From positions 640,001 to 704,000 of the forward strand of contig JBGAHS010000005.1 in assembly GCA_044226015.1 (NCBI GenBank): DNA of 64,000 nt. The letters run 5' to 3'. This DNA comes from Candidatus Obscuribacteraceae bacterium. Lineage in GTDB: Bacteria; Cyanobacteriota; Vampirovibrionia; Obscuribacterales; Obscuribacteraceae. This document shows, one piece after another, positions 5,104 to 15,078 of the stretch (within the stretch, counting starts at the first letter, position 1; each line of letters begins with the position of its first letter). A program made the translations under genes and the position numbers. The notes beneath the pieces were generated by a model. The model did no database searches, had not been told where the DNA came from, and saw nothing but the letters and a program-made list of their open reading frames with translations.

Positions 5104-6369
5104 TCATTCCAATAGCTCTCTTCCATTCAGATATGGTCGCAACGCTGCTGGAATGTATATGCTGCCATCGGCTTGTTGATGATTCTCAAGAAAGGGAATC
5201 AGTATGCGCGGTGAAGCAATTGCAGTGTTATTCAATGTGTGTGCGAATCGCTTTTTACCATTCTCATCGATGAACTTAATTCCCATGCGCCTGGCTTGAA
5301 AGTCGTTCATAGTTGAGCATGAATGCGTTTCTCCGTATGCATTTCGGCTCGGCATCCATGTTTCAATGTCGTGTTTGCGAACCTGTCCCTGACCAAGGTC
5401 ACCTGTGCAAACCGCGACAATTCTGTAGGGGAATTCTAGCGCTTGCAATATTTCCTCAGCATTCAACAGTAATTCGTCGTGGAGTAATCTGGTTTGTGCT
5501 GGGTCGTTAGTTGCAATAATGACTTGCTCTACCTTTTGAAACTGGTGCACTCGGTAAAGCCCACGTGTGTCTTTGCCTGCTGCCCCCGCCTCACGGCGAA
5601 AGCAAGTTGAGATGCCAGCCATTTTAAGTGGCAGTTCCTCGGGCTTATAAGTGTTGTTTGCTCTCATGGCTACTAGCGGAACCTCTGCAGTTCCCGCCAA
5701 ATAGTATTGGTCACGCTCAAGAGCATACGCGTTTTCTGCTCCCAGTGGAAAATAGCCTGTACCAGTCATTGCGTTTTCACGCACCAAAAGTGGTGGTACC
5801 ACAAGTTGAAATCCTTTCTCTATCAATCTATCAACGGCAAATCGCATGAGTGCCATCTCTAACAGAGCACCAAAGCCGGTGAGCGCATAAGCTCTCGCTC
5901 CTGCAAAGCTTCGAATGTTTTCGAATTCTGCGAGCTTATGTCGCTGCGCTAGTGTTAGGTGGTCTTGCAGTTCAAAGTTAGCTAACCTGGGCGTTCTCCA
6001 TTTGCGAAGCTCCAGATTCTCCGTGACATCTGCACCATCTGGGGTGTCATCCGTTGGAATGCTGGGAACACGCAAGAGTTCAATGTCTAATCTGACTTGG
6101 TTTTGTCTGAGTTGTCTTTCCTTTTCCTCAAGTTCCTCAGCTAATTGACGTGCATTCTCTATGTGCTTTTCTCGCTCTTCGCCGAGCAATCCTTTCGTAA
6201 TTTCTGCCCGTCGATTGCGTTCTTCACGCAGTTTCTCAATGTCTGCGCGCTGTTGGCGACATTGTTTGTCCAATTGGACTATCAGTTCAATGTCAACCTC
6301 TATTCGCTTCCGCCTGGCAGCATCAGCGAATAGCTGTGGCGTTGTTCTTATGGCGTTTATATCTATCAT
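5104..6369 (-). CDS. serS: Serine--tRNA ligase
   Basis: N-terminal coiled arm, GTAEVP, FRREAG...GLYRVHQFQKVEQ, ETHSCS, HTLNNTAIASPR; AGGAG RBS. Confidence 0.97.
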   Translation of the reverse strand: MIDINAIRTTPQLFADAARRKRIEVDIELIVQLDKQCRQQRADIEKLREERNRRAEITKGLLGEEREKHIENARQLAEELEEKERQLRQNQVRLDIELLRVPSIPTDDTPDGADVTENLELRKWRTPRLANFELQDHLTLAQRHKLAEFENIRSFAGARAYALTGFGALLEMALMRFAVDRLIEKGFQLVVPPLLVRENAMTGTGYFPLGAENAYALERDQYYLAGTAEVPLVAMRANNTYKPEELPLKMAGISTCFRREAGAAGKDTRGLYRVHQFQKVEQVIIATNDPAQTRLLHDELLLNAEEILQALEFPYRIVAVCTGDLGQGQVRKHDIETWMPSRNAYGETHSCSTMNDFQARRMGIKFIDENGKKRFAHTLNNTAIASPRILIPFLENHQQADGSIYIPAALRPYLNGRELLE

Positions 6370-6408
6370 AACTTCTCTCCTTGAATTTTCTGCAAGACAA
6401 GGACCGCC

Positions 6409-6443
6409 AAAAACAAAAACAGCGAGCCTTGTGTGGCGCGCTG
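6409..6443 (-). terminator. Intrinsic terminator of the serS leader (attenuator)
   Basis: Minus strand CAGCGCGCC-ACACAA-GGCTCGCTG followed by TTTTTGTTTTT, 40 nt before the serS ATG. Confidence 0.85.
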
Positions 6444-6494
6444 AATATCGTTACTCTAATGTCCGTTAGAACTGCACGTAATCGCTCGCCTTCG

Positions 6495-6542
6495 TTATTT
6501 CGAAGACGACGAGGAAAATTGTAGGTGTGCAAATTTGTCCAT
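6495..6542 (-). CDS. serS leader peptide MDKFAHLQFSSSSSK (five tandem Ser codons)
   Basis: ATG GAC AAA TTT GCA CAC CTA CAA TTT TCC TCG TCG TCT TCG AAA TAA read directly; lies between a promoter and a terminator upstream of serS. Confidence 0.85.
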   Translation of the reverse strand: MDKFAHLQFSSSSSK

Positions 6543-6548
6543 AATCTC

Positions 6549-6576
6549 AGTATATGTGTGTTTCAGTTTGAGTCAA
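6549..6576 (-). promoter_or_regulatory. Sigma70-type promoter of the serS leader
   Basis: TTGACT (6576-6571) - 16 bp - TATACT (6554-6549); the leader ATG starts 7 nt after the -10 box. Confidence 0.75.
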
Positions 6577-6583
6577 CCAATGA

Positions 6584-7360
6584 TTAACGTTTGCGAAGTT
6601 TGTCAACAAAATTGTTTTGCATTGATGCATCAACGAATTTCGGCAAAGGTTGGCTACCCAGAAAGTGTCTGAACACTGCATTGTATTTGAGATATGACCC
6701 TCGTTCTTTCGCATTCGCTATAGCCCAAATTTCCTTTTCCGAGAGTTTCGGTGGATGTTGATTCAATTGATTTGCTGCATAAATCGCAAATCCTTCAAAG
6801 AACCACATAGGACCCATTTTTTCTTCTTTGCCTTTGCAGATGCGCACGTGCAATCTATGCGCGAATTCGTGTGTGATCAATTTTCTAAAAGCATTTGGTT
6901 CTGACTTTCCATCAGGGTAATTGGCGAAGTAAACGTCTGGCGAAACTGCAAGTAGTATGCCGCCCTCAATCGCTGCCGAGAATGTTTTGGGAATGTCCTT
7001 TGGGGCATCTGGAACAATCTGTCGCAACCTTGCATCCCACTCGGGCTTTGTAGCATAAATTTCGGCAGAGTCGGCCAGTGGCTTGCTCATCAATTGAGAC
7101 CAGCCATTCTTCTCAGCAAAAACGTGCAAATTCCTTTGCGCTTCTATTATCTCGTTGCGAAGTTCATTTCGGCGAGGCTCAAGCGATTCAGAAAGCTTTA
7201 AGGAGAAGTCGAAAACCCCAGGCTCTATTTGTTTTGGTGCCGAGACAGTGATTTTGGCTTCATTGGAATTATTCATCTTCTGATGAGGTGATGTTATTCC
7301 TTGCTGAGTTGGAACGGCTATGCATGTGACAATTATGAGGGCGGGAATATATTTGAGCAT
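6584..7360 (-). CDS. Exported zinc metallopeptidase-like protein (gluzincin/MA-like)
   Basis: Signal peptide; HEFAH followed by WFFEGFA. Confidence 0.7.
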   Translation of the reverse strand: MLKYIPALIIVTCIAVPTQQGITSPHQKMNNSNEAKITVSAPKQIEPGVFDFSLKLSESLEPRRNELRNEIIEAQRNLHVFAEKNGWSQLMSKPLADSAEIYATKPEWDARLRQIVPDAPKDIPKTFSAAIEGGILLAVSPDVYFANYPDGKSEPNAFRKLITHEFAHRLHVRICKGKEEKMGPMWFFEGFAIYAANQLNQHPPKLSEKEIWAIANAKERGSYLKYNAVFRHFLGSQPLPKFVDASMQNNFVDKLRKR

Positions 7361-7883: not shown

Positions 7884-8335
7884 CGCAAGGAAATATTTTT
7901 CTAGCGCCGAGAGATTATTTTATAAAGCCGGATAATTTTCTTCAGGAATAACCGTACTGAGGTACTTCTATTTCACAAACATGTTGCAATATCATTATGC
8001 GGAGCCGACACCGGAAGCAGCGTAAAAGACGATATTCAGATGATGAAAGACGGCGCCGAAGCTCTGCTACAAGCCCCGATTGTTGCGGCTAATGGCATTT
8101 ATAGCCTCTTTGCTCCTACCTCGAAGAGACATCGATAATCTCCTCATTTAAGTTTGGTTGCTCGATGCGCCGTGTTTATTCACGGCGCATCCTGGTTTTT
8201 CCAGGACAATGTCCCTGATTGTGATATTGCGGTGAAGACCCGCCGGGACGCTTTTACTGACATCTTCACTCTGCTATATTTTAGGCGAGTTGGCTTGTTA
8301 ACTCAGGAACTTTGCTCTGCTGGGCAAGAGGAAGA

Positions 8336-11300
8336 ATGTCTTTAGGACCTGATTCAATTATTGCCTCTCGCTATAAGCTGCTTCACAAGCTAGGTGAAGG
8401 CGGATTCGCCATTGTCTTTAAGGCGCAAGATCTTGAGTTGGGGCGCACTGTAGCGATCAAATTCCTGAAGGCTGACGGGCAAGATTCTGAAAGTCTTGAA
8501 CGCTTCTTGCGCGAAGCAAGGTTGATTGCTCGTCTAAGTCATCCTAATGTTGTTTCAGTTTATGCAATCGACGTTCTAGAAAACGAGAACATGCCATACA
8601 TCGTAATGGAATTTCTCGATGGAGAAAGCCTCGCGAGTCGAGTTAGCCGCCTTGGACCGTTCTTTGATGGCGAGTGCATGAAATTGTGCCTTGCGCTTTG
8701 TGACGGCTTGAATCAATTGCACGAAAACAACATCCTTCACCGTGATTTGAGTTCAAACAACATCTTTCTGTGCAAGTTAGCAGCGGACGATTCTTTCGAT
8801 CCCAAAATCATAGATTTAGGCTTGTCGAAGGTTCTCGCAGATAATTCTTCCGTTGCCGATAAAAAGCTAACAGCCACAGGTCTTTTAATCGGCAATCCTG
8901 CATTTATGAGCCCCGAACAAGCTCGTGCAGAGGCTCTGGATAAGCGAAGTGACATCTATTCTCTGGGCTGCGTTTTTTACACAGCTGTGTATGGGCGTGC
9001 ACCTTTTGAGGCGGATACTCCCGTTGCGTTGCTTTATAAGCATCAAAATGAAGAGCCAAGTTTTCCTGTACTTAAATGGAGGGACCAAAAGGCTGCAACG
9101 CGAGTCATAAACACTTTGCGAATCGCAATGCAAAAATCTGCTAGTAATCGCTTTCAGTCATGCACAGAATTCGCAGCTGCCTTGCGGGGAGAATCACGGC
9201 TCCCTTCTAAAAATAAAAGCAACCTTGCCTGGAGATTAGCAGCGCTTTCTGGCGTTCTTGTGGTCGGGTTTCTTTCTATGTACGTCTTCTCGATTAAGAA
9301 GAAATCAGCTGAGCTTCCGCAGCCTGCTGGTCATAAGATTTCGCGGAAATCCAGTCTATCGCTGAGCATGCGCAAGCCCGAGTCTTTTTTTGAACTGCTT
9401 GATGTGGTTGAAGATTTCGTCAGGCAGAAGCATCCCAAGGAAGCTCTAGAACTTTTGGATTCATTCAAAGGCAATCTTAACGCTAGAGAAAAACAATTGC
9501 TCAACATGCGGAAGTTGAGTCTTTCTGCAGCTCTCGGTATGAAACATGAGGAAGATCGCCTGGCGGCGAAACTGTATTCTGACCCTACGGTAATTGAAAA
9601 TCATTCAGTTTTGATTTCGCTGATTGATTACTATGTTACCCGAGACCCGTCTAAGTGTCTTGAACTTTGTAAACTCTGGCAGAAGAAGAACCCAGGGGAA
9701 CGCGACTTTATAGTTGAACTTTGCAATGTACGTGCCTTAGTTTTAACGCGCAAATTCTCTGAGGCTGAAAAACTTTTTCCCTCGTTTGATTCGTTCGGAA
9801 TCTCCCAGAGCCCTGACCCTGTGAATGTTGTTTCTCAACTTGAACAAATAAAGCTGGTTGCAAGAATTGGAATGAATCAAAGTATTGATGTTGTTAAAGC
9901 TTGCGATGCGCTCACTGACGTACTTCCTCGAAGAAGGATATCTGACAGGTATCATAATTATATTGAGGTTGCTGATCTGTTAGAAAATGCTGGGTTAATC
10001 GAGCCTGCAGCCAAACTTTGGTTTGCTGCTGCGCACGGTTGCAAGAAGTCAGATCTTGACAAATCTGTTTCTTGCTTCTATAGAATTTGTTCCGGTCCAT
10101 TTTATAGAGATAATCCTGAATTGGTGATTGAATCTGCCAAGGAGTTACTTGCTAGCAGGCATCCTCATGTAAACACTTTTGAGATTCGTCATGTCCTGTT
10201 CGAGATGTACATCGTGCTGAACAAAATGGATGAAGCAAAACGTGTTGCAATGGAAAGCTACGAAACTTTTGAGAATACTTATTCAAGTAAGTCTCAATGG
10301 ATAGCTGAAGATTTGAAAGGGCTATTAACTTGCGAGACTGATGTGTGGCTTATTTCTATGAGCCAAAGAGCTAATGAAGATTGCCGACGCGTATGCCATC
10401 GGGTCTTGGAACTCGTTAAAGGGCGCAAAGAAGCACCGATTGTTACGGCTGCAACATTCTGTTTTCTTGCTCATGATGCAGAAGCTGTATGCGATCACGC
10501 AGCATTGATACGTTATTCAAAAATTGCTGCTGACGATCTTGAGAACATCAGTCAGCCTCAGCTGTCAGAAACCTTTGCTAAATTGCTTTCACCATTTTTG
10601 ACAATGTGTGCAAATCTTCCTCCTCGCGACGCGGTTTACTGTCTCGATAAAATTCAACGTGCCTATAAAAGAGCATACCCGGCTCGTTCGCAGCCTCTAG
10701 CATTACTTGCCTTGCTCTCTACAGCGTATTCAGCGATGCCATCCTCCGAATCGGTAATAAAAATTTTTCCAGATTTCATGAATTCTCTAGAAGAGTATGA
10801 TTTTGCCAACTCTAATGAGCTTCCTGTTGATATGCTTTCCTTAATCAGGTTCTTTTCTAATACCATAGATTCTGCTGAGATTAAGAGTGCGGTTTCTAAA
10901 ATCGGAAGCAAGAATCCTTCTGCAGAAAATCTTGCAGTCCGTTCCCTCGCACTTTCTGAATATTTTCTGGATAGAAGACAGTCAGCAGAGTTCGCTCAAA
11001 GTTTCACCACCTTCCGCGCGCAACTTTTTGATTTGAAGAAATGGAATAAATACGCTTACGAAATTTTGAGAAGAGATGCAATAATTCTGTCTTTGAGATC
11101 TGGAGAAAAGTCGGCTCCGGCGCTTATAAGTCAGCTGGTTTCTGACATCAACGAAAGAGGGCGTATCCAACTCTTTGTTGAGTTATCAGGTTATTTTGAG
11201 CGTTTTCGAGATTACGGTATCTGGGCAAATTTTCTTCGGCAAAATGAGGCTCTTCTCAAGGACTCAACGAATTATAATGTCTCTACTCTCATTCGAGTTG

Positions 11301-11644
11301 AGGGAGATTGCTTTCATAGTTGTGGCGACAACGTTCAGTCTGAACAAGTGTTTGCTGCGGCATTGGCTGATTATCTTGCTAGAAAACACTTAACCGAAGC
11401 TGATGTAGGGAATGATTTAGATCTGGCGCTCCTTTATTGGGGAACTGTTAGGGCTAAAATGGCATTAGGCAAAAATGACATACCTTTGCGGGTGTTCAAA
11501 ACTTTGGCACCAGCCTTGAGTAAATTCAAGTTTGCACAGAAAATAGGACTCAAGAAGTTCGTCGATTTCTGGCAGGCTGCTGCAAAAAATGGCAACCCAG
11601 GTGATCTTAAAGAGGTCGAGGATTTCAGGCGTATTATGCTCTAG
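8336..11644 (+). CDS. Hanks-type Ser/Thr protein kinase with TM helix and helical/TPR-like C-terminal region
   Basis: GEGGFAIV, VAIK, HRDLSSNN, DLG, MSPEQ, SDIYSLG; ATG 8336 follows GAGG; TM at about residue 300. Confidence 0.9.
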   Translation: MSLGPDSIIASRYKLLHKLGEGGFAIVFKAQDLELGRTVAIKFLKADGQDSESLERFLREARLIARLSHPNVVSVYAIDVLENENMPYIVMEFLDGESLASRVSRLGPFFDGECMKLCLALCDGLNQLHENNILHRDLSSNNIFLCKLAADDSFDPKIIDLGLSKVLADNSSVADKKLTATGLLIGNPAFMSPEQARAEALDKRSDIYSLGCVFYTAVYGRAPFEADTPVALLYKHQNEEPSFPVLKWRDQKAATRVINTLRIAMQKSASNRFQSCTEFAAALRGESRLPSKNKSNLAWRLAALSGVLVVGFLSMYVFSIKKKSAELPQPAGHKISRKSSLSLSMRKPESFFELLDVVEDFVRQKHPKEALELLDSFKGNLNAREKQLLNMRKLSLSAALGMKHEEDRLAAKLYSDPTVIENHSVLISLIDYYVTRDPSKCLELCKLWQKKNPGERDFIVELCNVRALVLTRKFSEAEKLFPSFDSFGISQSPDPVNVVSQLEQIKLVARIGMNQSIDVVKACDALTDVLPRRRISDRYHNYIEVADLLENAGLIEPAAKLWFAAAHGCKKSDLDKSVSCFYRICSGPFYRDNPELVIESAKELLASRHPHVNTFEIRHVLFEMYIVLNKMDEAKRVAMESYETFENTYSSKSQWIAEDLKGLLTCETDVWLISMSQRANEDCRRVCHRVLELVKGRKEAPIVTAATFCFLAHDAEAVCDHAALIRYSKIAADDLENISQPQLSETFAKLLSPFLTMCANLPPRDAVYCLDKIQRAYKRAYPARSQPLALLALLSTAYSAMPSSESVIKIFPDFMNSLEEYDFANSNELPVDMLSLIRFFSNTIDSAEIKSAVSKIGSKNPSAENLAVRSLALSEYFLDRRQSAEFAQSFTTFRAQLFDLKKWNKYAYEILRRDAIILSLRSGEKSAPALISQLVSDINERGRIQLFVELSGYFERFRDYGIWANFLRQNEALLKDSTNYNVSTLIRVEGDCFHSCGDNVQSEQVFAAALADYLARKHLTEADVGNDLDLALLYWGTVRAKMALGKNDIPLRVFKTLAPALSKFKFAQKIGLKKFVDFWQAAAKNGNPGDLKEVEDFRRIML

Positions 11645-11745
11645 GTTCGGGGTTTCTTGCGTGTACTGCGAGCGAAAGCGCAAATGATTACTATATTTAT
11701 GGGCTTATCTTGATATCTAAAGAGCAACTTCTCAGGTAGACTAAA

Positions 11746-14700
11746 GTGATGATGTTGCTGGGACCAGATGCAATTATTGCCTCACGCTACAAGCTTCTGC
11801 AAAAGCTTGGCGAGGGTGGGTTTGCTATTGTCTACAAGGCTCAAGATCTTGATCTTGGGCGCACTGTAGCGATAAAGTTCCTGAAAGCCGAAGGGCATGA
11901 CTCTGAGAATATGCAGCGGTTCTTGCGTGAAGCAAGGCTGATTGCTAGTGTAAGCCATCCCAATGTAGTTTCGGTTTATGCAATCGACGTTCTCGAGAAC
12001 GAGAACATGCCTTACATCGTGATGGAATATCTTGACGGAGAGAGTCTTGCGAGTCGAGTTAGCAGGCTCGGTGCGCTTTCTGCCGATGAATGTAATAAGC
12101 TTTTTTTTCAGCTGTGTGACGGTTTGAATCAACTTCATGAGAATAACATCCTTCATAGAGACATCAGTTCCAACAATGTGTTCTTATGCAACGTATCTAA
12201 TGGTGAGCCTTTTGTGCCTAAGATTATCGACTTGGGTTTGTCGAAGGCTCTGGTGAATAGTTCGTCTAATACTGATAAGAAGCTGACTGCAACCGGACTC
12301 TTGATTGGCAACCCGTCCTTCATGAGTCCAGAGCAGGCAAGAGCCGAGGCGCTCGACAAGCGAAGTGATATCTATTCGCTTGCTTGTGTTTTCTACACTG
12401 CCGTGTATGGGAGTCCTCCGTTTGATGCCGACACTCCTGTGGCTTTACTCTACAAACATCAGAATCAAGAAGCTCGTTTCCCCCCGTTAAAGTGGCGTGA
12501 CCAGCAGGCTGCGAACAGAGTAATTGACTCATTAAGGGTCGCGATGAATAAGGATGCAAATGCTCGCTTTCAATCTTGCCCTGAGTTTGCTGCTGCATTG
12601 AGTGGAGATGCGCCCTTGCCTGTGCGTTCGGCTCCTGCCTCGAATCGGCTTGCGATAACCGTTGTTCTTTTGTCTGGACTCATGGTACTTGCTCTCCTTC
12701 CTGCCGTTTATTTCACAAGAAAAAAAAGTGCTGAACCAGTTTTAGGATTCCACAAAGTAAGTCAAAAACGCTCTAATTTGTCTCTCCGGATGAGGAAGCC
12801 GAGTTCCTTCCTTGATTTGCTGGAAATTGCTGGAGATTTTGCAGAGCAAGGGCATGAAAAAGAAGCGCTCGACCTATTGAACTCGTTCACAAATGCATTC
12901 AGTCTTTCGCCCGGCGAAAAACAGATTCTGAATATGCGAAAGCTGTCTTTGTTTGCGGCACTGGGAATGCAGAAGCAGGCTGATGCCACAGAGGAATTGC
13001 TTTATTCAGATCCCACAATTACAAAGAACAGTTTGCTCACCGCCAATTTCGTTGATTATATGGTTTCGAAGGATCCTGCGAAGTGCATTGTCATTTGTGA
13101 GCACTGGCAAAAGAATAATCCTGATAATAGAAGTCTACGAATTGAGCTTGCGAAGTTGCGCGCCTTAGTTTTCTGCCGGAAATATGCCGAAGCAAAAAAA
13201 CTTATTCCGTCTTTTGATTACTTTGACCTTAAGCTAAGCGCGACGAATGAAACTGCTTTGAGCGAGCTTGAAGAGCTAATACTTGTAATAAAGTCTGGCT
13301 TGGGTGAGAAAGTAGATCTGGTAAAGGGCTGCAAAGAAATCACAGAAGCGAATCCACGGCGGCGCTTGCATGATGAACATAAAACCTATCTTGAGGTTGC
13401 AAACCTTTGTGAATTGTCTGGTTCGAGGAAAGAGGCGGTGACTCTTTTGATGACCGCTGCTCGCAAGTGCGAGACGACGAATCCTGAAGCTGCAAAAGAG
13501 TGCTTTAGAAAGGTGTTTTCTGAAAAAGATTTTTGGAATGAGTTTCCGTCTGAAGTCATTGAAGCCGCCAACGGAGCTTTGAAGTTGGGGCTAACGCCAG
13601 TTGAAGCTTATCCCGTGCGAAACGTGCTTATTCACGTTTATTGCAATCTCAAAAAATACGACTTAGCAAAGAAATTCGCGCTGGAGAATTATGATTGGTT
13701 TTTGCAAGCTTATGGAAATAAGCCCGAATGGAGTGCAGTTGAATGTCGGTATTGCGCAGATATCATGGGGGGGCTGACCAGAGCTTTTGATGGAGACCAA
13801 AATAGAGATGAGTTAATCAGGCTGTCAGAGCAGGGGTTGGTGCTGTTTCAAAAGCATAAAGAGGCGGCATCAGCCCATGTCGAGGTACTGCTGAATTTAG
13901 TTAGGAGTGTTCAGTGGGTGGATCATGAGAGGATGGGTTCTTTTTCTAGAAGAGCTGCTGATCAGCTTATACTTATTTCTCCAGATGAACTTCCCAATTC
14001 TCTTAGTCGTAAGATGCCCTTGATAGAATCGTTGTTTTCTGCAATTCCGCCTGTTGACCAGATCTACTGCTTTGACCATCTTCTTACGGCTTATTCACAA
14101 GCTTTTCCAGGGCGGGCAAAGCCACTCAAATCCCTATCTTCGTTAGTCTATTCGTATTCCGTGTTGGGGCAAATGGATAATTTGCGGAAGCTATATCCTG
14201 TCATTTCCAAGTCTCTAATCGAAACAGATTTCAGTAAAGAACAAAGTGATATTACTTCTGTGATATTTATGGTTCGAACCATTGAGAATTCCCCAAAATT
14301 TGCCGATTTCGAAAGTGTTCTTGCCAAAACTGGCAGCGCTAAAAACTCGCCTGTGAATCGGGCTGTCGCGTCTTTAGTTCTGGCTGATTTTTATCTTGAT
14401 GTGGGAAGAACCACCGATTTTGAAAACACCTTTTCCAAGTTTCGCTTGCAGCTGAAGGAATTGAGTGTCCGTGATCCAGTCTATGCTCAGCTCAGAAAAT
14501 GCTCTTTATTACAAGCTCTACGAACTCAAAAGCAAGCGTTTAGCGATTTCGTAAACCAGAAATTGGCTGAAGTAAAAGGAGGAGATCGACTTAGACTGTT
14601 TTTGGAATTCTCCGAGTATTTTCAACACTTTTCGGATTTGGCTGTGTGCGTGAAATTTCTCGATGAGCACAAAAATGAGCTGAGTGATAATTCCAATCCT

Positions 14701-15078
14701 GATGTTTTGGTTTTAAATCGCGTCAGGGGTGATTGCTACTATTTGCTCAAAGAATTCGCTCTTTCCGAATCTCTTTACCGCTCTGTTTTAGCAGATTACG
14801 AAAAACGCAAGAGTCTTACTGGCGCTGACGCTGTAAACGATAAAAATCTGGTTTTGCTCGAATGGGGGCTGTTCGATGCATTGAAAGCCCAGAAAAAATT
14901 TGATGAGTCTTTAGAGCTATACAAAAATCTTGGTGCTGGACTCGTGAAGTTTAGAATTAGAGAGCCAAAGGTGCTGAGGGAATTTGCCGCAATTTGGCAA
15001 GCTGCTGCAACTAAGTTTGGCGACGAAAATGATTTGAAGGAAATTGAGAGATTTAAAAATGCAATCGCTGGAAATTGA
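11746..15078 (+). CDS. Hanks-type Ser/Thr protein kinase, tandem paralog of 8336..11644
   Basis: Same motifs (HRDISSNN, DLG); collinear with the upstream gene. Confidence 0.9.
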   Translation: MMMLLGPDAIIASRYKLLQKLGEGGFAIVYKAQDLDLGRTVAIKFLKAEGHDSENMQRFLREARLIASVSHPNVVSVYAIDVLENENMPYIVMEYLDGESLASRVSRLGALSADECNKLFFQLCDGLNQLHENNILHRDISSNNVFLCNVSNGEPFVPKIIDLGLSKALVNSSSNTDKKLTATGLLIGNPSFMSPEQARAEALDKRSDIYSLACVFYTAVYGSPPFDADTPVALLYKHQNQEARFPPLKWRDQQAANRVIDSLRVAMNKDANARFQSCPEFAAALSGDAPLPVRSAPASNRLAITVVLLSGLMVLALLPAVYFTRKKSAEPVLGFHKVSQKRSNLSLRMRKPSSFLDLLEIAGDFAEQGHEKEALDLLNSFTNAFSLSPGEKQILNMRKLSLFAALGMQKQADATEELLYSDPTITKNSLLTANFVDYMVSKDPAKCIVICEHWQKNNPDNRSLRIELAKLRALVFCRKYAEAKKLIPSFDYFDLKLSATNETALSELEELILVIKSGLGEKVDLVKGCKEITEANPRRRLHDEHKTYLEVANLCELSGSRKEAVTLLMTAARKCETTNPEAAKECFRKVFSEKDFWNEFPSEVIEAANGALKLGLTPVEAYPVRNVLIHVYCNLKKYDLAKKFALENYDWFLQAYGNKPEWSAVECRYCADIMGGLTRAFDGDQNRDELIRLSEQGLVLFQKHKEAASAHVEVLLNLVRSVQWVDHERMGSFSRRAADQLILISPDELPNSLSRKMPLIESLFSAIPPVDQIYCFDHLLTAYSQAFPGRAKPLKSLSSLVYSYSVLGQMDNLRKLYPVISKSLIETDFSKEQSDITSVIFMVRTIENSPKFADFESVLAKTGSAKNSPVNRAVASLVLADFYLDVGRTTDFENTFSKFRLQLKELSVRDPVYAQLRKCSLLQALRTQKQAFSDFVNQKLAEVKGGDRLRLFLEFSEYFQHFSDLAVCVKFLDEHKNELSDNSNPDVLVLNRVRGDCYYLLKEFALSESLYRSVLADYEKRKSLTGADAVNDKNLVLLEWGLFDALKAQKKFDESLELYKNLGAGLVKFRIREPKVLREFAAIWQAAATKFGDENDLKEIERFKNAIAGN

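Follow-up and report, generated by a model that had tools for sequence, protein, structure and literature searches.

The stretch of DNA analysed here (the window, 64 kb) carries a seryl-tRNA synthetase (SerRS) gene, serS2, and upstream of it a short leader. Both are read on the minus strand, and coordinates are positions in the window unless a genome and contig are given. In the direction of transcription, the features are as follows.

6571–6576, minus strand: -35 hexamer TTGACT; by pattern, a TTGAC-type hexamer occurs in 45 of 48 clade loci.
6549–6554, minus strand: -10 hexamer TATACT, with the predicted transcription start at or next to 6542.
6495–6542, minus strand: leader ORF, likely leaderless, 15 codons, MDKFAHLQFSSSSSK and then a stop codon; homologous ORFs precede most second-copy serS genes (41/43 loci).
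6501–6515, minus strand: five Ser control codons, TCC TCG TCG TCT TCG (segment 1).
6482–6494, minus strand: segment 2, predicted partner of segment 1 (1:2 hairpin) or, once freed, of the terminator arms.
6435–6443, minus strand: terminator 5' arm (segment 3), the conserved partner of segment 2.
6420–6428, minus strand: terminator 3' arm (segment 4), which together with loop bases 6432–6429 can pair with the anti-SD segment (z -3.2).
6409–6419, minus strand: U tract of the predicted intrinsic terminator.
6397–6408, minus strand: segment 5 (anti-SD), which can pair with 6432–6421 or, via 6403–6398, with 6383–6378 over the SD.
6377–6381, minus strand: Shine-Dalgarno sequence (SD) AGGAG of serS2.
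5104–6369, minus strand: serS2, second seryl-tRNA synthetase gene, 421 aa; TIGR00414 match of 422 bits against a cut-off of 301.65.

A 258-aa ORF (6584–7360, minus strand) ends 8 nt before the -35 hexamer. It has no NCBIfam match, and read-through from it into the leader is possible because no evident terminator lies between them. Two tandem 1110-aa kinase-like ORFs occupy 8312–15078 on the plus strand.

The product of serS2 is predicted to be a bacterial SerRS of the TIGR00414 type with intact class II motifs; it aligns over its full length with the solved structure 1SER and keeps motifs 2 and 3 and the ETHSCS sequence. It is 35% identical to the product of the housekeeping gene serS1 of the same genome (G000:C11:677253–678551). 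Within the order, serS1 is present in 92 of 100 genomes and in all 39 high-quality ones. The serS2 type is present in 42 of the 100, 41 of which also carry serS1; a search of 24 genomes outside the family did not find it. All 53 serS2 proteins of full length group in a single clade (support 0.98), and the nearest named relatives are mostly labelled Ca. Obscuribacterales (Melainabacteria). The clade lies apart from serS1, in the midst of SerRS from Myxococcota, Armatimonadota, Bacillota and Bdellovibrionota; we infer that serS2 was acquired from outside. A plasmid search found no close relative of serS2 among 82 records (all below 60%, best 43%). The neighbourhood of serS2 is not conserved: when the longest ORF on each side within 1.5–2.5 kb was compared, 105 flanking ORFs fell into 71 clusters, with no neighbour common across the clade.

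Several individual genomes deserve mention. serS2 lies 4 kb from serA in G011:C2 and 8.5 kb from it in G083:C2, and G011 carries two leader-bearing copies of serS2. At one locus of G083 (L249) the serS2 open frame spans only residues 131–420 and the leader is intact, which possibly reflects a frameshift or an assembly error. The window's genome also contains an array of 18 tRNA genes (G000:C10:356333–358584, L165), including second copies of tRNA-Ser (TGA/GCT-type); the array is reminiscent of the stress-induced cyanobacterial tRNA operon.

The ATG of the leader ORF, at 6542, lies 6 nt past the -10 hexamer, and a 16-nt spacer separates the two hexamers (6576–6549). Rereading of the sequence bore out the initial annotation, which had described a TTGACT-N16-TATACT promoter, an ATG and a peptide of Ser codons on the minus strand. 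Taken alone, the promoter match is at chance level, because one promoter-like site was found in 6200–7000 and shuffled sequence yields 1.6 ± 1.1. The combination of promoter, leaderless ATG and four TCN codons gave a single match in the 8.19-Mb genome by pattern search, at the serS2 leader. The ORF ends with five TCN serine codons followed by Lys. As had also been described, the Ser codons at 6509–6501 pair with 6494–6486 with one G-U (-15.8 kcal/mol, z -3.3), and a U-tailed terminator precedes the gene (stem 6443–6435/6428–6420, one C.U mismatch; -13.5 kcal/mol, z -3.5). This terminator was absent from the output of a simple terminator scan. The earlier description stopped at 6409 and so missed the anti-SD segment at 6408–6397. 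In the window, the 5:SD hairpin alone is weak (z -0.7). No Rfam family matched the leader region in the window, and the T-box family (RF00230) had no match in the window or in loci L045, L046, L047, L050, L052 and L054. By comparison, 7 of 20 same-type Bacillota loci matched RF00230.

The initial annotation suggested scanning serS upstream regions in relatives. This revealed a Ser-run leader ORF upstream of 41 of 43 serS2 loci (42 genomes), compared to none of 28 housekeeping serS1 loci; one of the 28 has four Ser in an unrelated 38-codon ORF, 289 nt upstream. Among 154 loci outside the first clade cut, five were flagged as having a Ser leader, and four of these proved to be serS2. It should be noted that locus counts overstate independence, since the loci are kin. 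The annotation's proposal of a trp/pheST-type Ser attenuator fits the conservation and, as described below, the codon pattern and the sister leaders of the same genome, but the gene that it precedes is a spare copy and not the housekeeping serS.

We then compared 53 leaders in detail. None has a strong SD before the ORF, and the -10-to-ATG gap is 6 or 7 nt in all 32 leaders that match the strict promoter pattern. The promoter-adjacent ATG stays in frame with the Ser run over five spacings, the first Ser falling at codon 9–13. The peptide is 14–44 aa long and its sequence is not conserved, with the commonest residue at any flanking position present in at most 22 of 53. The run codons are TCN in 262 of 267 cases (TCA 108, TCG 65, TCT 52, TCC 37), whereas AGY makes up 38% of Ser codons genome-wide. 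Since the third base is free and the flanks vary, selection appears to act on the decoding of serine, not on the peptide or on an invariant RNA sequence. According to the accessible text of PMC3862929, serine starvation in B. subtilis slows ribosomes at TCN codons only. The choice of TCN may also serve pairing with the purine-rich segment 2.

Two loci of the clade, L250 and L251, lack a classical Ser leader. They share an SD-led ORF of 54 codons, located 460–530 nt upstream, in which serines occur only towards the end; a long pyrimidine stretch precedes the SD. Outside the clade, two same-type serS loci (L080 and L222) carry a Ser-rich ORF and a terminator. These two are similar to each other and may represent an independent family of Ser attenuators. 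L080, which carries the label Eubacteriales, has no T-box match, and the enzymes are not serine-poor (23 Ser in L080 and 21 in L222).

To follow the pairings across loci, we cut the leaders into segments. A script detected a hairpin and U tract in 49 of the 53; the other four failed the strict U-tract rule, and one of the 49 was assigned a wrong hairpin and dropped afterwards (n = 48 in later folding). MAFFT alignments placed the helices of two leader subtypes out of register, and duplex tests replaced column-wise covariation. Duplex energies were compared with those of shuffled partners (p ≤ 0.05, n = 49). The pairing of the 3' arm with segment 5 beat shuffles in 41 leaders, segment 5:SD in 23, segment 2:5' arm in 20 and the 1:2 pairing in 11, compared to three and one for two control pairs. 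These counts suggest a conserved chain of 1:2, 2:3, 3:4, 4:5 and 5:SD. When partners were exchanged between leaders, the terminator arms co-varied, the own partner being best in 19 of 19; the own partner beat foreign ones in only 12 of 19 for segment 2:5' arm and 11 of 19 for 5:SD.

The initial annotation had placed the antiterminator differently, with segment 2 capturing the 3' arm. The complementarity on which this was based is present (GGCGAGC, 6490–6484, with GCTCGCT, 6427–6421), and in the window the segment 2:3' arm duplex is stronger than the 2:5' arm duplex (-13.3 vs -11.4 kcal/mol) and gives the lowest-energy stalled state (-22.5 vs -19.0). Similar duplexes occur in its close relatives L045 and L142. 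However, the pairing is not general: it beat shuffles in only 5 of 49 leaders, as against the 20 for the 5' arm, and the own partner beat foreign ones in 8 of 19. Furthermore, the 3' arm is made last, and holding it would leave segment 5 free to hide the SD. A duplex on the 3' arm beside the U tract could itself release the polymerase, as in oligonucleotide-mediated termination. We therefore consider antitermination through the 3' arm improbable as the wiring of the family.

With the 5' arm as the antiterminator partner, the leader could act as a ribosome-sensed switch, whose dynamic steps and physiological trigger we infer as follows. Transcription would start at the ATG, and the leaderless ORF would be translated. 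With enough Ser-tRNA, the ribosome would pass the Ser codons onto segment 2 (or the 1:2 hairpin would refold), allowing the 3:4 terminator to form. Transcription would then stop near 6410, and any read-through RNA would hide the serS2 SD in the 5:SD hairpin. In a shortage of Ser-tRNA, the ribosome would wait on the TCN run, and segment 2 would capture the 5' arm while the 3' arm is still to be transcribed. The polymerase would read through, the freed 3' arm would take segment 5, and the SD would open.

We used folding to examine this switch. In nascent RNA lacking the 3' arm, segment 2 holds the 5' arm (P > 0.5) in 48 of 48 leaders with a ribosome stalled at Ser, compared to 14 of 48 with no ribosome and 28 of 48 with a control stall at codon 4; the near-zero value with a ribosome at the stop codon is partly built into the test. 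In the window this measure separates the states poorly (0.66 free, 0.83 stalled, 0.64 at stop). For window RNA that extends as far as the U tract, P(terminator) is 0.28–0.62 with a stall at Ser10–13, as opposed to 0.90 free, 0.94 with the codon-4 stall and 0.93 at stop. At equilibrium, folding of full-length leaders gives a weak and partly unspecific switch. Mean P(terminator) is 0.71 stalled vs 0.84 past the run, and the codon-4 control also gives 0.71. A drop of more than 0.3 upon stalling was seen in 7 of 48 leaders. SD access rose by more than 0.2 in 10 of 48, with the window not among them (0.74 vs 0.79). Shuffled versions of segment 2 still reach P 0.56, vs 0.84 observed, and in 5 of 19 representatives the difference is significant when each is taken singly. 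The attenuators known so far work as kinetic switches, so the weak equilibrium switch weakens the model but does not refute it.

These results also bear on the possibility that the same Ser sensor has a mainly translational output, through occlusion of the SD, with a terminator that is weak or constitutive. Pairing of the 3' arm with segment 5 is the best conserved alternative pairing (41/49), at equilibrium the terminator persists in most loci despite the stall, and four of the 53 leaders failed the strict U-tract rule, all of which would be consistent with such an output. The hairpin and U tract detected in the remaining leaders (one wrong pick aside) and the co-variation of their arms (19/19) weigh against this, and a mainly translational switch seems improbable. 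Moreover, because the relay to the SD requires disruption of the terminator, transcriptional and translational outputs would share one trigger.

We asked whether the genome of the window contains other leaders of this kind. In a strict scan of 132 promoter-adjacent short ORFs, the Ser leader was the sole match. Among 5086 long ORFs, a looser scan picked out 64 candidates. The majority lacked a cognate gene and were treated as noise; four are cognate to the downstream gene. These are a Trp leader (WWSW) upstream of a trpE-like gene (G000:C7:767278 minus, L161); a Met-rich ORF, with seven Met in its first 14 codons and an accompanying terminator-like hairpin, before the cystathionine gamma-synthase gene metB (G000:C7:258406 minus, L162); an Arg-rich ORF (RRSRRVR) with a U-tailed hairpin upstream of argJ (G000:C1:405537 minus, L163); and an ORF with YYYYW and two successive terminator-like hairpins upstream of a DAHP synthase gene (G000:C9:287073 minus, L164).

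Among synthetase genes, a promoter-adjacent Pro-rich ORF, MNSVNTPAAPGSPTIEVG, and a hairpin precede family II proS (G000:C1:706282 region, minus; L128, L255). Family II proS is one of two proS genes and is present in 55 of 100 genomes; the Pro leader was found in 21 of 30 of its loci, and the gene adjoins serS2 in L005, L009 and L180. Its product contains 2.6% Pro and no Pro-Pro. In addition, ileS is preceded by a GTG-started, SD-led Ile-rich ORF and a terminator-like hairpin (L134). No leader was seen at other synthetase genes in the 13 loci inspected, and there is no Ser leader upstream of serA or glyA in this genome. Taken together, the cognate Trp, Met, Arg, Tyr, Pro and Ile leaders suggest that the organism likely uses the leader-peptide mechanism broadly.

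Alternatively, the ORF could respond to general translation stress or encode an arrest peptide, or the TC-rich run could be simply an untranslated RNA stem. A stall at codon 4 does free segment 2 in some loci, which is in favour of such readings. Yet in every one of the seven leaders the codons of the run match the gene that follows, and the variable sequence and length of the peptide, its free third codon positions and an ATG kept in frame over five spacings fit neither an arrest peptide nor an untranslated stem. We regard these explanations as highly improbable, and translation of the run as a sensor of charged tRNA-Ser as the better account.

The protein encoded by serS2 is itself poor in serine. 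In the window's genome, SerRS2 has 8 Ser in 421 aa compared to 21 in SerRS1, and only 4 of 3072 long ORFs are as low; four positions that are usually Ser are Ala in the window's SerRS2. Median Ser content is 14 in leader-bearing serS2 (n = 51), 18 in the family's serS1 (n = 17) and 21.5 in same-type SerRS of other taxa (n = 126). serS2 has fewer Ser than serS1 in 9 of 12 genomes, the other three being exceptions, and some copies of serS2 have 18–27 Ser. At the other extreme, the SerRS2 of L250 (G101) and L251 (G097) has two Ser in 435 aa, both of them the invariant Ser of ETHSCS. SerA is not serine-poor (6.4% Ser). Within the clade, the rate of Ser gain is the lowest of all 20 residues (0.54–0.56 of controls). 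By parsimony, the Ser loss/gain ratio shows no increase within the clade (0.63 vs 0.62 and 0.77), suggesting that serine depletion was mostly one early event; repeated independent purges are not supported by this ratio. For the most part, an early purge appears to have gone further in some branches and to have been eased in others, where up to 27 Ser occur. As only 8 of its 421 residues are Ser, production of SerRS2 would go on in the very shortage by which it is induced.

A second, divergent synthetase also raises the question of inhibitors. The spare enzyme could be an inhibitor-insensitive SerRS, in which case poisoning of the serS1 product would lower Ser-tRNA, stall the ribosome on the leader and induce serS2; this is compatible with the attenuator model. 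The divergence of the second copy (35% identity), its patchy occurrence (42/100) and its 22 fixed differences from SerRS1, several of them in motifs 2 and 3, would be expected of such an enzyme, and AbmK (albomycin) and Streptomyces TrpRS1 (indolmycin) provide analogues. However, serS2 has no conserved neighbourhood (105 flanking ORFs in 71 clusters), many other taxa have SerRS of the same type that lack the leader, and a serine-poor composition fits any Ser-tRNA shortage. In addition, serS2 is commoner in genomes where full-length serA was not found (15/22 vs 23/58; p 0.027 in a hand tally of genomes that are kin and not independent). The window's genome carries both serA and glyA. By analogy with these enzymes, a role in inhibitor resistance is thus conceivable, and in our view rather unlikely.

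Therefore, of the readings discussed, we favour the attenuator: judged from its sequence, the conserved Ser leader, with its terminator and anti-SD segment, is probably (about three chances in four) a ribosome-sensed attenuator that induces a spare, serine-poor SerRS when charged tRNA-Ser is scarce. We lean, with less assurance, towards a wider interpretation, in which a Ser-stripped SerRS, a leaderless sensor and a double lock on transcription and translation together form a serine-famine module within a lineage-wide set of Ser, Pro, Ile, Arg, Met, Tyr and Trp leaders. Serine is one of the amino acids that become depleted earliest. A synthetase that is switched on by lack of a residue which it must itself contain faces a bootstrap problem, which the sensor and the serine-purged enzyme address together. 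If true, the famine module would carry cognate bias beyond biosynthetic enzymes, to tRNA synthetases, and would supply a first serine attenuator for testing. The portable leader, about 170 nt long, could serve as a Ser-tRNA biosensor, and the natural two-serine SerRS show which serines the enzyme needs. The work also offers a first view of amino-acid control in the non-photosynthetic relatives of cyanobacteria, an uncultured lineage.

Classical leader-peptide attenuators include trpL, hisL and thrL of E. coli and, for a synthetase, pheM-pheST. The serS2 leader resembles these in its short ORF with tandem cognate codons, its predicted 1:2, 2:3 and 3:4 hairpins and its U-tailed terminator. It differs from them in its amino acid, serine, in being likely leaderless, in the anti-SD relay and in its target, a spare serine-poor synthetase. 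Leader-peptide attenuation is described in PMC4007540, and the accessible text of that paper lists 14 leaders in D. deserti (Tyr, Thr, Trp2, Met, Asp, Leu, Cys and Phe synthetases and six biosynthetic loci). Eight leaderless leader peptides are given for Streptomyces lividans in the accessible text of PMC8079986. As in these two organisms, cognate-rich ORFs, likely leaderless at serS2, precede both synthetase and biosynthesis genes here as a genome-wide set; as far as the accessible texts go, the 14 and 8 leaders include none for serine or serS (PMC4007540, PMC8079986). Mycobacterial poly-Cys leaderless short ORFs, in which stalling relieves SD occlusion, are likewise homopolymeric (bioRxiv 10.1101/834739, accessible text), and an SD-occluding duplex is predicted in the serS2 leader as well. 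From the same text, the poly-Cys system appears to be translational only at the tested locus, whereas the serS2 leader adds a terminator, serine and a synthetase target.

The auxiliary TrpRS of Streptomyces, a resistant enzyme, is reportedly subject to ribosome-mediated attenuation (Vecchione and Sello, 2010). Auxiliary resistant synthetases form pairs at about 30% identity, according to the accessible parts of PMC9437257, PMC9032320 and PMC8323819. serS2 encodes a second divergent synthetase, like TrpRS1, which is reportedly inducible through a leader peptide, and AbmK, the SerRS2 of albomycin producers. Unlike AbmK, serS2 is not part of a conserved cluster, and the accessible text of the reviews mentions no attenuator for AbmK. 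In bacilli, a His leader peptide replaces the T-box before hisS paralogs (PMC2965389, accessible text). The exchange of a T-box for a leader peptide upstream of a paralogous synthetase gene is comparable to the situation of serS2, whose same-type genes in Bacillota carry T-boxes; it differs in involving histidine and Firmicutes. The accessible text of PMC4209129 describes cognate bias, the avoidance of their own residue by amino-acid biosynthetic enzymes; the bias seen here affects a tRNA synthetase paralog and extends down to two Ser.

The initial annotation knew of no described Ser leader-peptide attenuator for serS. Our literature search, which covered few subscription papers, agrees in finding none, and subscription attenuation surveys could hold one; no serine-poor paralog of a synthetase came up in it either. 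Attenuation of synthetase genes by leader peptides is already known, as are leaderless and SD-occluding versions of it. The present analysis adds the restriction to a spare paralog, the antiterminator corrected to the 5' arm, the anti-SD relay and the serine-poor enzyme.
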